A DNA stretch of 64,000 nucleotides from Christensenellales bacterium (lineage in GTDB: Bacteria > Bacillota > Clostridia > Christensenellales > UBA1750). The notes beneath the pieces are model-generated. The model did not search any database. It had not been told where the DNA came from and saw nothing but the letters and a program-made list of their open reading frames with translations. Within the stretch, counting starts at the first letter, position 1. Every line of letters starts with the position of its first letter. The position numbers and the translations under genes were made by a program. The DNA lies in NCBI GenBank assembly GCA_050942895.1, contig JBMNOE010000002.1:130710-194709 (forward strand), in the 5' to 3' direction. Below, in pieces: positions 50,701 through 52,064 of the stretch.

Positions 50701-52064
50701 CTCTTTTAAAGCTATGGACCCAGGCCTTGGGCAGAAAGCCCGATGCCGAGATATCCTTCTTCTCACAAGGCGGCACTTCGCTGACAGCGATAATAATACT
50801 GAACCATTATCACCAGCAAAGCATCCCCATATCGCTAAACGATTTCTACGCCCACCCCACCCTTTCCGCTCAAAGCAAATTGCTGAGGGAAAGGGCCCGC
50901 CCTCTCTTGCATGAAGTTGGCGAAAATCAGATGCTCACCAGAAAGGTGCCTTTAAACGAGAGAACTCTTGGGCTTTCAGGCGCCATATTGCTGACCGGCG
51001 CAACGGGATACCTGGGCGCGCATATTCTGAGCGCCCTGCTGAATTCGGGGGCGGAAAAGATCGTCTGCCTTGTGCGGGGCGATGCCGAAAACCGTTTGCG
51101 CAAAAGCCTTTCCTATTACTTTGGTGAAAACTTCTTTGATGAAAACAGCAGCAGGATTAAGGCCCTTTCCGGCGATATTTCCAGCAGGAACTTCGGTCTT
51201 TCACCTGAGGATTACGCTCTGCTTTCATCCCGCGTTCGGACGGTCTTTCACAGCGCAGCCGATGTGCGCCACTTCGCCCCGTGGGATGAGCTTCAGCTTG
51301 CCAATGTTGAAGGAACTGATTATGTGATCGACTTCGCTCTGGCGGCGGGTGCAGACCTTGCGCATATTTCCACTGTCAGCGTCGCGGGGGAATATCTGGT
51401 GGACCAGCCCGAAACTTCAGCCGTTTTTTCGGAGCACGATCTTGATATCGGCCAAAACTGGCAGGAAAACCCATATTGCAAGAGCAAGGCTTTGGCCGAG
51501 GCCGCCGTCGTCCGGGCGATGATCAACAGAAAGCTAAACGCTAAGATATTCAGGGTGGGCAGGCTTGTTTCAAGAAGCAGCGACGGCCTTTTCCAGCCCA
51601 ATGCCGGCACAAACGCCTTTTACAGGGAGGTTAAAGCCATGTTGGGTCTGGGCTGCGCGCCCCTTAGCATGAAAAACATTCCTTTTGAGCTGACCGAGGT
51701 GGATCTTTGCGCGGACGCCATAGTAAGGCTCTGCGGGCAAAGAGGAGGTTCCTTCCATGTTTTCAACCCCAACATGCCGGCATTCGGTGAGCTGATGAGC
51801 GCCTTTGAGGGCCTGCAGTTCATACCTGATGAAGACTTCGCCGCTCTCTTGAAGGATGCTGTGAACAGCGCCGTCAGCGATGGCGGCTACATTCTCTCCC
51901 TTTCCCAGACCTATTTTTCAGGCGCCGCTTCATGCAGCAATATCTTATTAGACAGCTTCAGGACGGAATCTCTGCTGAAGCTGGCCGGTTTTAGCTGGCC
52001 CAAACCCTGCATAAAGTCCATATCCAAATGTTTTCTTGAGGCCAAATATGAGGTGAGCACATGA
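44730..52064 (+). CDS. Nonribosomal peptide synthetase, two modules with a terminal reductase: Cstarter-A-T-C-A-T-R.
   Basis: C1 has HHIITDAWS at about 45144. A1 has TSGSTGVPK at 46551 and the A10 Lys near 47519. T1 is GGDSLS with Ser at 47673. C2 has MHHIISDG at 48213. A2 has FTSGSTGQPKG at 49623, NIYGPTET, and the A10 Lys near 50614. T2 is GGTSL with Ser at 50778. The R domain has LTGATGYLG at 50991 and an SDR fold running to the C-terminus. Confidence 0.9.
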   Translation: MVNSLERDLYPLSSSQKNIWNLSKVYPGTPMNNVCNVLRISGAFEPFLLQRCIKALYAAFPALTTRIAIKNGIPMQHQSRLFPVEAPFLDFSKESSGESLKQWESAVAREPISIENSPLSFFYIFKAGESSGGVMMKLHHIITDAWSQVLLNNHLMHNYKRLMNGDELDETEMPSYEAHVEAEGEYIDSAAFEKDMSYWARRIQTLSRLQAGDFTGLCPSTEAKRSEFLLPAGLSRGILDFCREGNISPFTAIYMAFAVYQLRVHGSNVFPIGVPSINRVNHRRKQTLGMFVNTLPFFTVIDEADSSANFSTLCEMVKNDWFSLLSHQRLPYENIKNLAPSGSGNLFDVVLSYQNGRLDDNLDPRVSFLGEWIHSGHQAESLCMHISHQGADGLLIYYDYLPHAFTGAEIADMHRHMINILSGGIKSPKKPLSLLPILDESEEQQLIFGFNQTETTQPSEKNIAEALMKALNENSGKIAVEHGGKSYSYGRLNDDALMIARGLAERFPSGGKVIAISMENGYELLTCLCAVALSGNAWLLIDRDQPKQRLGILLAQGGANLLISDRAFPESPGGIKQVLPSSLGLAGGSRFSPQAQSTPEDIAYVVCTSGSTGVPKAVQVPQESLLNLVDAMRPFYLQKTVLALCNIAFDAFMLESVCTLLCGGSIVIPEDGHRHDPARLGEYISKYDVGCFALTPSRLQAYLQNDAFCASLRSVETVICGGEPLPAGLVRLMARHSGAVLYNQYGPCEATVAVTMGRAADRDPVTIGRPMQNCRIYILDDNMQPLPAGSVGEIYIGGRCLAKGYALKPELTAQSFVSDPFRHGERLYKTGDLGRWTTEGEIIFAGRKDRQVKLRGHRIELAEVESCLLLFDGITAAVASIYEGRLVAYYTCDGIVNPDALLAHAAAHLPAYMVPVYAAQVDGFESTASGKIDYRQLPAPDLGDNSIPADDVERRLLAIWQAVLKTSDIGTRTSFYRAGGDSLSALSLVASVEEEFGVQIELSSLQTHGTISRMALLLRDRAGKESFSAEIPLAPLSESATYRPSAPQKSFFALSRLDESGLAYNMPGAFLLEGKLDINRLDSAFKELIALDETLRTGFEIQGMDIVCKVHQSAGFELQRLSGSLEDAMKKFVRPFDLGSPPLLRAGIIQGESAEQILLLDMHHIISDGISSQLTLERLSKLYRGMAPEMPRLSYRDYAHWSNQGSFGRGALSLEKQRSFWKDCFSGGIPQMSLPTDNPRPAVFKSAGKRYDFQLSKELTAGIKDYCAKAHTTPYVLLLAVYGLFLSRYSGAEELVVGSPVSGRRMSSLQQITGAFVNTLPMLLGPKEELSFEDYLKKTRDFVALALDNQDIPFEEIMAISGASHSRRSNPLYSVMFSFVPMDPAGFEIGGCAMTPLKVGGGNVKMDLHLEATMSKDSLKLSLEYAAALFDEQTIGLYARGLEATMVGIVGGAGRSLREVPVLSSADKARLFTIPWNMRAPYDDLPVDQAIDSFAKAIPDAAAIRWGENQSHSFIRVKEMSDNLAVNLQKQGVQPGDVVAFMPRRDGDMIPTMIGILKAGAAYLPVEPSFPADRIIYMLEMAKARLLLFSSKTAPPKGIPCPSQVIDFSALEEQPSVPPANRSPEDPFNVLFTSGSTGQPKGVMMIHKSISNLLANVEPLLAGEDSRMLCASSCVFDVFTTEALLCLATGRCAVIADEEEMLLPWKLAARIEKDGADILQLTPSRMQMCLASDEFRHALRNVKSIILLGEPWTLSMRDSIKRLTNARIFNIYGPTETSVHNCQGDVTDCSCIHIGLPIGNCRYYLLDKKQRLLPPTALGEIYIAGDCLAKGYAGRDDLTEKVYLPDPFFPGERMYKTGDIGRLRADGTWQCLGRTDTQLKLNGHRIEPSEIAAQIVLSALAKEAAVIPVMQDGVPQSLRAYLVPDDGYSEEGLRGYLAGKLPDYMLPSSFVALDEMPRNASGKTDLKALAQMDPQQKILTDKISASPEEKALLKLWTQALGRKPDAEISFFSQGGTSLTAIIILNHYHQQSIPISLNDFYAHPTLSAQSKLLRERARPLLHEVGENQMLTRKVPLNERTLGLSGAILLTGATGYLGAHILSALLNSGAEKIVCLVRGDAENRLRKSLSYYFGENFFDENSSRIKALSGDISSRNFGLSPEDYALLSSRVRTVFHSAADVRHFAPWDELQLANVEGTDYVIDFALAAGADLAHISTVSVAGEYLVDQPETSAVFSEHDLDIGQNWQENPYCKSKALAEAAVVRAMINRKLNAKIFRVGRLVSRSSDGLFQPNAGTNAFYREVKAMLGLGCAPLSMKNIPFELTEVDLCADAIVRLCGQRGGSFHVFNPNMPAFGELMSAFEGLQFIPDEDFAALLKDAVNSAVSDGGYILSLSQTYFSGAASCSNILLDSFRTESLLKLAGFSWPKPCIKSISKCFLEAKYEVST

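Follow-up and report, generated by a model that had tools for sequence, protein, structure and literature searches.

Proteasomes and proteases of the cysteine and serine classes are inhibited by peptide aldehydes in a covalent but reversible manner. Nonribosomal peptide synthetase (NRPS) clusters of gut Clostridia for N-acyl dipeptide aldehydes were reportedly described by Guo et al. in 2017 (Cell), and the rup/ruminopeptin pathway of Ruminococcus bromii is said to have been described by Schneider and Balskus in 2018. Products of gut Clostridia include N-octanoyl-Met-Phe-H (BGC0001686) and the N-acyl Leu-Glu aldehyde ruminopeptin, which inhibit cathepsins and proteasomes (PMC8518294, PMC12327764); N-acyl dipeptide aldehydes made by commensal Clostridia act as inhibitors of host cathepsins and trigger endoplasmic reticulum stress (PMC8518294). 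Here a 64,000-nucleotide stretch of a Christensenellales bacterium genome (assembly GCA_050942895.1, contig JBMNOE010000002.1, positions 130,710 to 194,709 of the forward strand; hereafter the window) was analysed, in which a dimodular NRPS with a predicted terminal thioester reductase (R) domain is followed by a sensor histidine kinase (HK) and a response regulator (RR) with an HD-GYP domain. The best overall explanation, to which we assign a probability of about 0.72, is that the R domain is competent and would release an N-acyl dipeptide aldehyde from a lipoinitiated dimodular assembly line.

The synthetase in the window resembles those of the gut Clostridia pathways (BGC0001686 and rup) in being dimodular, in having a condensation (C) domain in the starter position and a terminal R domain, and in its anaerobic Clostridia host, and its predicted product, an N-acyl dipeptide aldehyde that would inhibit proteases, falls into the same class (PMC8518294, PMC12327764). 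It differs in its R domain, which is ~46% identical to that of Blautia producta, and in its adenylation (A) domain codes, which match none that are assignable. AusA, the aureusimine/phevalin synthetase of Staphylococcus aureus (R structures 4F6C/4F6L), is likewise dimodular with a terminal R domain and a conserved catalytic triad, and its R domain is the model case of two-electron release, yielding a dipeptide aldehyde (PMC8210680). AusA has the architecture A-T-C-A-T-R (T, thiolation) without a starter C domain, so that its aldehyde cyclises to a pyrazinone, whereas the NRPS here begins with a C domain. The AusA equivalog model NF047350 is the second-best NCBIfam match, at 147 bits (R region only) against a cut-off of 2500, so the NRPS here is not an AusA orthologue. 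The closest solved structure, both by sequence (aligned to the GFxWP motif) and by fold, is the peptidyl carrier protein-R didomain of Mru_0351 from Methanobrevibacter ruminantium (6VTJ/6VTZ), at ~30% identity; that R domain ends a far larger, orphan NRPS of archaeal origin. The terminal R domain of MxaA (myxalamid, 4U7W/4W4T) shares the fold, the NADPH motif and the triad at ~28% identity and belongs to a polyketide synthase (PKS)-NRPS hybrid that reduces by four electrons to an alcohol (PMC8024701). Both the architecture and the release chemistry have already been described for gut Clostridia, and the NRPS in the window is a fairly divergent further case.

The terminal reductase domain

Pfam resolved the NRPS into Condensation, AMP-binding, PP-binding, Condensation, AMP-binding, PP-binding and NAD_binding_4 domains, and no Pfam match to Thioesterase (PF00975) was obtained in its 2444 residues. 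The original prediction, made from the sequence alone, that an R domain stands in place of a thioesterase is borne out by this order. The second thiolation domain (T2) was also correctly placed: the serine that had been put at about position 50778 within a GGTSL motif is Ser2017, and the motif is kept as QGGTSLTA in the closest relatives. Ser2017 lies 67 residues upstream of the R domain, which occupies the C-terminus, and T2 is predicted to present its thioester to that domain.

Similarity to solved R domains begins at residue 2084 (position 50979) and extends to about residue 2427, and the protein ends at residue 2444 (position 52061). The domain thus spans ~361 residues, in agreement with the short-chain dehydrogenase/reductase (SDR)-like domain of roughly 360 residues that had been proposed. 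The range given for it, 50960-52061, was exact at its end; its start falls in the T-R linker (residue 2077, ERTLGLSGAILLTGATG). The Rossmann motif that had been noticed after T2 is contained in LTGATGYLGAHIL at residues 2088-2100, and Arg2116, which aligns to a motif shared by the solved R domains, is presumed to contact the 2'-phosphate of NADPH. PF07993 (NAD_binding_4), one of two profile models suggested as a check, matched residues 2088-2331 over its entire length (profile positions 1-258 of 258, E=7.5e-47) with 160.1 bits, above the gathering score of 20.1. A phmmer search of the PDB returned 6vtj (E=1.1e-35), AusA (4f6c, 3e-32) and MxaA (4u7w, 1e-25), and chance does not account for similarities of this strength. 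Alignment with MxaA and the other solved R domains, also suggested as a check, revealed the Thr-Tyr-Lys triad as Thr2215, Tyr2249 and Lys2253 (Table 1).

These residues were further examined in an alignment of 22 sequences, consisting of the R domain and its best database relatives, which extends through a conserved GFxWP close to the C-terminus. Three glycines of the nucleotide-binding motif (G47/G50/G53), R73, S171/T172, Y206 and K210 are invariant; in protein numbering, R73 is R2116, T172 is T2215, Y206 is Y2249 and K210 is K2253. An AlphaFold2 model of the R domain generated from the same alignment reached a pLDDT of 89.4 and a pTM of 0.88. When this model was compared with the PDB by Foldseek, 29 of the top 30 matches were R-domain-type reductases, the remaining one being a plant fatty-acyl reductase (7eoz) at rank 25. 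The matches were led by 6VTJ/6VTZ, followed by MxaA, AusA, a Streptomyces PKS thioreductase, carboxylic acid reductase R domains and a Mycobacterium tuberculosis R domain. The match to 6vtj (E=1.4e-26, TM 0.77) spans 374 columns and includes the C-terminal subdomain, an indication that the model contains the substrate-binding subdomain of ~100 residues. The model folds as a terminal thioester reductase, and both the Tyr and the Lys are in place; neither a loss of these residues nor a different fold, the two outcomes that would have spoken against the original prediction, was observed.

The closest full-length relative is a 2448-residue NRPS on a JGI metagenome contig (L085, 235..7581), which is 76% identical. 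Between the two, the R domains are 79% identical with a ratio of nonsynonymous to synonymous substitution rates (dN/dS) of ~0.17, on a par with that of the other domain types (C, A and T), and the Thr-Tyr-Lys triad is kept. For the first condensation domain (C1) dN/dS is 0.16, and the second A domain is the most conserved, with 88% amino acid identity and a dN/dS of 0.09. The value of 0.17 at this level of identity indicates that the R domain is under purifying selection. Judged from sequence and model, the domain is intact and predicted to be a catalytically competent NAD(P)H-dependent thioester reductase of the extended SDR type, probably with a preference for NADPH.

The assembly line and its predicted product

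The presence of an N-terminal C domain, of an acyl-activating ligase with a coupled acyl carrier protein (ACP) in the operon, and of a divergently transcribed 4'-phosphopantetheinyl transferase (PPTase) points to an N-acyl dipeptide aldehyde as the product. C1 is not preceded by a carrier domain in the NRPS, and no second NRPS gene was found in the 64-kb window. The ligase, whose best NCBIfam matches are fatty-acid-CoA ligases (all below cut-off) and whose solved relatives in the PDB are oxalyl-, malonyl- and fatty-acyl-CoA synthetases, presumably activates the N-acyl starter. For the PPTase, the AusB and HetI PPTases rank highest in NCBIfam, neither of them reaching its cut-off. The C domain in the starter position together with the ligase/ACP pair suggests that the aldehyde is N-acylated, in which case it would be stable and would not cyclise to a pyrazinone.

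In the proposed mechanism, the ligase would first activate a fatty acid, or less likely some other carboxylic acid, and then load it onto the ACP that is translationally coupled to it. C1 would then move the acyl group to the first amino acid on T1 (lipoinitiation), and C2 would join the acylated first amino acid to the second one on T2. Carried by the phosphopantetheine arm of Ser2017, the N-acyl-dipeptidyl thioester would reach the active site of R, where a hydride from NAD(P)H, with the help of Thr2215, Tyr2249 and Lys2253, would yield a thiohemiacetal that collapses to the N-acyl dipeptide aldehyde, a two-electron release. The acyl starter, the stop at the aldehyde and bioactivity as a protease or proteasome inhibitor are features that we infer.

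The specificity pockets of the two A domains yielded the Stachelhaus codes DALAIGQVAK and DVTQILIVHK, extracted with a GrsA reference fragment. They resemble those of the Blautia producta synthetase, DALAVGQVAK and DVIQIMIVYK. In core motif A8 of the second A domain, an Asn replaces the canonical Arg. The same change occurs in two relatives (P0001, P0009), so it is a trait of the clade and not damage.

Several observations weigh against an N-acyl dipeptide aldehyde released by this domain. The two codes match no assignable specificity. Among PDB sequences, C1 has ordinary C domains as its top matches, and the closest solved relatives of the ligase are oxalyl- and malonyl-CoA synthetases. The nearest characterised relatives of the NRPS are at most ~46% identical. 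The control of the extent of reduction in NRPS R domains is still unclear, and two- or four-electron reduction is not predictable from sequence (PMC8024701). Finally, TIGR01746, the second model suggested as a check, matched significantly (E=2.4e-53, profile positions 2-299 of 371 aligned) and scored 181.7 bits, short of its curated cut-off of 213.35 bits.

This last result, with the final ~70 profile positions unaligned, could be taken for a sign of a decayed remnant or of a redox-inactive R* domain acting as a Dieckmann-type cyclase. The missing score falls on profile positions 300-371, in the variable C-terminal subdomain, the portion of R domains that is less conserved (PMC8024701). The R domain of Blautia producta (197.7 bits) and those of six metagenomic relatives (149-204 bits) also score low, against 312-336 bits for MxcG/Lys2-like R domains, so the low score is a property of the whole clade combined with a limit of model coverage, not a sign of decay, and it does not speak against an R domain. 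Moreover, none of TGxxGxxG, Arg, Thr, Tyr and Lys is missing or varies, the C-terminal subdomain is confidently modelled, dN/dS is 0.17 and there is no PKS module to provide a beta-keto substrate. A redox-inactive domain or a pseudogene was rejected on these grounds and is considered extremely improbable. The reductive release put forward in the original prediction, as opposed to hydrolysis or cyclisation, is supported; whether the product is an aldehyde or an alcohol, both of which it had allowed, is not readable from sequence (PMC8024701). The R domain might thus carry out a four-electron reduction to an N-acyl dipeptide alcohol devoid of the aldehyde warhead, as do the R domains of MxaA and of an M. 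tuberculosis NRPS. MxaA (4u7w/4w4t) is among the best matches by sequence and fold, and no known feature of sequence or structure separates aldehyde-forming from alcohol-forming NRPS R domains (PMC8024701). Formation of the alcohol is nevertheless judged unlikely, as the R domain is closer in sequence to the aldehyde-forming R domain of AusA, and to the AusA model, than to MxaA or MxcG, and the characterised Clostridia pathways yield aldehydes (PMC8518294, PMC12327764).

A competent R domain could also supply an aldehyde that does not persist. If C1 were unused or only partly used for acylation, the free dipeptide aldehyde would cyclise spontaneously to a dihydropyrazinone or pyrazinone, as with AusA. 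Dipeptide aldehydes of gut NRPSs, which cyclise and oxidise without enzymatic help, have mostly been obtained as pyrazinones (PMC12327764, PMC8210680), and among the PDB matches of C1 ordinary C domains are intermixed with starter domains, namely those from RzmA (7c1h), CDA (4jn3) and surfactin synthetase (8f7f). The HHxxxD motif of C1 is intact, however, and C1 is constrained like the other domains (dN/dS 0.16). The ligase and ACP are kept in the operon across divergent loci, and AusA lacks a starter C domain. A pyrazinone is on balance quite unlikely, and an N-acyl dipeptide aldehyde accounts best for the ensemble of genes. A literature search found nothing that links Blautia producta to a pyrazinone.

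The histidine kinase and HD-GYP regulator

Between the NRPS and the ligase, the operon contains genes for a 7TM-PAS sensor HK and a REC-DUF3369-HD-GYP RR. No DNA-binding domain was found by Pfam in the RR, whose output is predicted from its motifs to be a cyclic di-GMP (c-di-GMP) phosphodiesterase. The model for NosR-family RR phosphodiesterases scored 210.7 bits against it, below the cut-off of 400.

Among 81 loci retrieved via the R domain, the order NRPS-R, HK, RR(HD-GYP) was found in eight (L001, L002, L003, L004, L006, L008, L009 and L043). In another locus (L017) the HK occupies the same position and the contig ends before any RR; in one more (L029) both HK and RR are also matched, the RR lying ~2.7 kb further on. 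The eight loci with the full order come from Lachnospiraceae, Oscillospiraceae/Ruminococcaceae, Christensenellales and Acetivibrionales, and the ligase and ACP are located downstream or upstream of the NRPS in related loci. In a neighbour-joining tree of R domains, the seven nearest to that of the window all belong to HK-linked loci. The tree is crude, and the HK-linked loci are not cleanly monophyletic in it; they fall within a clade of 27 members (with two outgroups) or of 72 members, depending on the outgroup.

The association was also recovered from the kinase. A search with its sensor region (residues 1-350) retrieved only 33 protein clusters at E<=1e-5 from 5.8 billion sequences. Of seven sensor-region relatives, ranging from 92% to 31% identity, six (L085-L090) lie directly behind a C-A-T-C-A-T-R NRPS and ahead of the RR, ligase and ACP. 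The most distant, at 31% identity (L091, 6691..9841), is part of an HK/HD-GYP-RR pair with no NRPS nearby, which suggests that the signalling pair may predate its link to the NRPS. One of the six loci (L090) carries a second c-di-GMP component, a PAS-GGDEF gene of the diguanylate cyclase type (1532..2461) immediately upstream of the NRPS. By these gene orders, the linkage of HK and RR to the NRPS is reciprocal, being found from the R domain, with nine related loci showing it, and from the kinase sensor alike, and it suggests, as a lead, that the aldehyde pathway and c-di-GMP signalling are functionally connected. No paper joining peptide aldehyde, HD-GYP and nonribosomal was found in the open-access literature, in a search that the primary descriptions of this NRPS family lay outside.

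These observations raise the speculative and rather doubtful idea that the aldehyde is a signal, and not, or not only, an inhibitor of host proteases. The cue sensed by the 7TM HK would be the product itself or a lipid related to it, and the HK would set c-di-GMP through the REC-HD-GYP RR; this would be a peptide-aldehyde autoinducer system shared by several orders of Clostridia. The idea derives from the very small sensor family (33 clusters), from the position of six of seven relatives behind an NRPS, from an RR without a DNA-binding output and from the GGDEF gene in L090.

Relatives, surroundings and significance of the locus

No record of the exact NRPS sequence was found, and an R-domain search of a set of 5.8 billion proteins returned only fragments of 303-693 residues with at most 46% identity. 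This search missed L085 with its 79%-identical R domain; the L085 NRPS surfaced only via the kinase search, in the same protein collection. A finding of 'no close homologue' from such a word-indexed protein search is accordingly unreliable for giant proteins. RecG of the window is 100% identical to MGI5898689.1, which belongs to a metagenome-assembled Christensenellales genome, and the PPTase together with residues 1-1346 of the NRPS is matched without differences by a Logan contig (run SRR31061295). Of the species in the GTDB set, Blautia producta DSM 2950 supplies the best relative of the R domain (~46% identity); its operon is likewise ordered NRPS-HK-RR-ligase-ACP, the individual proteins being 41-54% identical, and its cluster is reportedly one of the published gut Clostridia set. 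Over 10 further Clostridia loci share these genes, among them one of the Faecalicatena orotica type (L086).

The genes of the operon are closely packed (Table 1). ATGA start/stop overlaps join the NRPS to the kinase (52061-52064) and the ligase to the ACP (57191-57194), which suggests translational coupling at both junctions, and the other neighbours in the operon are 34 and 45 bp apart. L085, L086 and L087 show the NRPS/kinase overlap as well. Housekeeping genes flank the cluster, asp23-fakA-recG upstream and yebC downstream. A scan of 43700-58500 for promoters and terminators gave a weak excess over shuffled sequences (~2.6 standard deviations for promoters, ~1.8 for terminators), and the ends of the operon are not defined by it. 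On a short contig whose RecG is 73% identical to that of the window (L084; 1..1520 compared with 43344..44638 of the window), asp23-fakA-recG is kept and no PPTase or NRPS is seen in the ~1.1 kb beyond asp23; the cluster may be patchily distributed in the lineage, though a contig of this length is weak evidence.

The rest of the window (15205..19591 and 21618..28587 on the minus strand, and 33678..43799) is ordinary chromosome. These three stretches hold genes for the B and A subunits of a type II topoisomerase as well as an operon for arginine biosynthesis (class-III aminotransferase, ArgJ, argininosuccinate lyase and synthase). They also hold a diaminopimelate dehydrogenase, a weakly GH106-like protein of 879 residues, a MerR regulator, recG, fakA and asp23.

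Table 1. Coordinates in the window of the genes, domains and motifs of the NRPS locus.
Feature	Position	Strand	Remarks
Sfp-type PPTase	44042..44638	-	PF01648, E=1.1e-12; divergent from NRPS, 91-bp gap
Dimodular NRPS	44730..52064	+	one unbroken open reading frame, 2444 residues; C-A-T-C-A-T-R (Pfam)
C1 (N-terminal, starter position) active-site motif	45144..45164	+	HHIITDA; intact HHxxxD
First A domain, specificity pocket	46674..	+	Stachelhaus code DALAIGQVAK
T1 phosphopantetheine site	47664..47678	+	GGDSL (Ser982); PF00550
C2 active-site motif	48216..48236	+	HHIISDG; PF00668, residues 1041-1471
Second A domain, specificity pocket	49755..	+	Stachelhaus code DVTQILIVHK
Second A domain, core motif A8	50346..50384	+	GRTDTQLKLNGHRIE; Asn for Arg of KIRG
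T2 phosphopantetheine site	50769..50783	+	GGTSL, residues 2014-2018; Ser2017 codon 50778..50780
Terminal R domain	50979..52061	+	residues 2084-2444; Rossmann and C-terminal substrate-binding subdomains
NAD(P)H-binding motif	50994..51017	+	TGATGYLG (TGxxGxxG), residues 2089-2096; aligns to TGATGFLG of solved R domains
Arg2116	51075..51077	+	CLVRG; aligns to LVR/IR motif of 6vtj, AusA, MxaA
Catalytic Thr2215	51372..51374	+	ISTVSV; aligns to ST (STxS) of 6vtj, AusA, MxaA
Catalytic Tyr2249 and Lys2253	51474..51488	+	YCKSK (YxxxK); aligns to YVCSK (6vtj), YTRSK (AusA), YAQSK (MxaA)
7TM-PAS sensor HK	52061..53896	+	PF16927, PF13426, PF02518; ATG overlaps NRPS stop
RR, REC-DUF3369-HD-GYP	53931..55481	+	PF00072, PF11849, PF13487; HDVGK and GGGYPDG motifs
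ANL-superfamily acyl-activating enzyme (acyl-CoA/acyl-ACP ligase type)	55527..57194	+	PF00501, PF23562
Stand-alone ACP	57191..57466	+	PF00550, E=2.8e-9; ACP models

The locus extends the N-acyl dipeptide aldehyde NRPS family to Christensenellales, and its A-domain codes, matching no known specificity, mean that the product may be a new congener. Release by the R domain is textbook chemistry, and the linkage to the HK/HD-GYP pair is the more useful lead. It would make a physiological role of these aldehydes on the side of the producer experimentally approachable.

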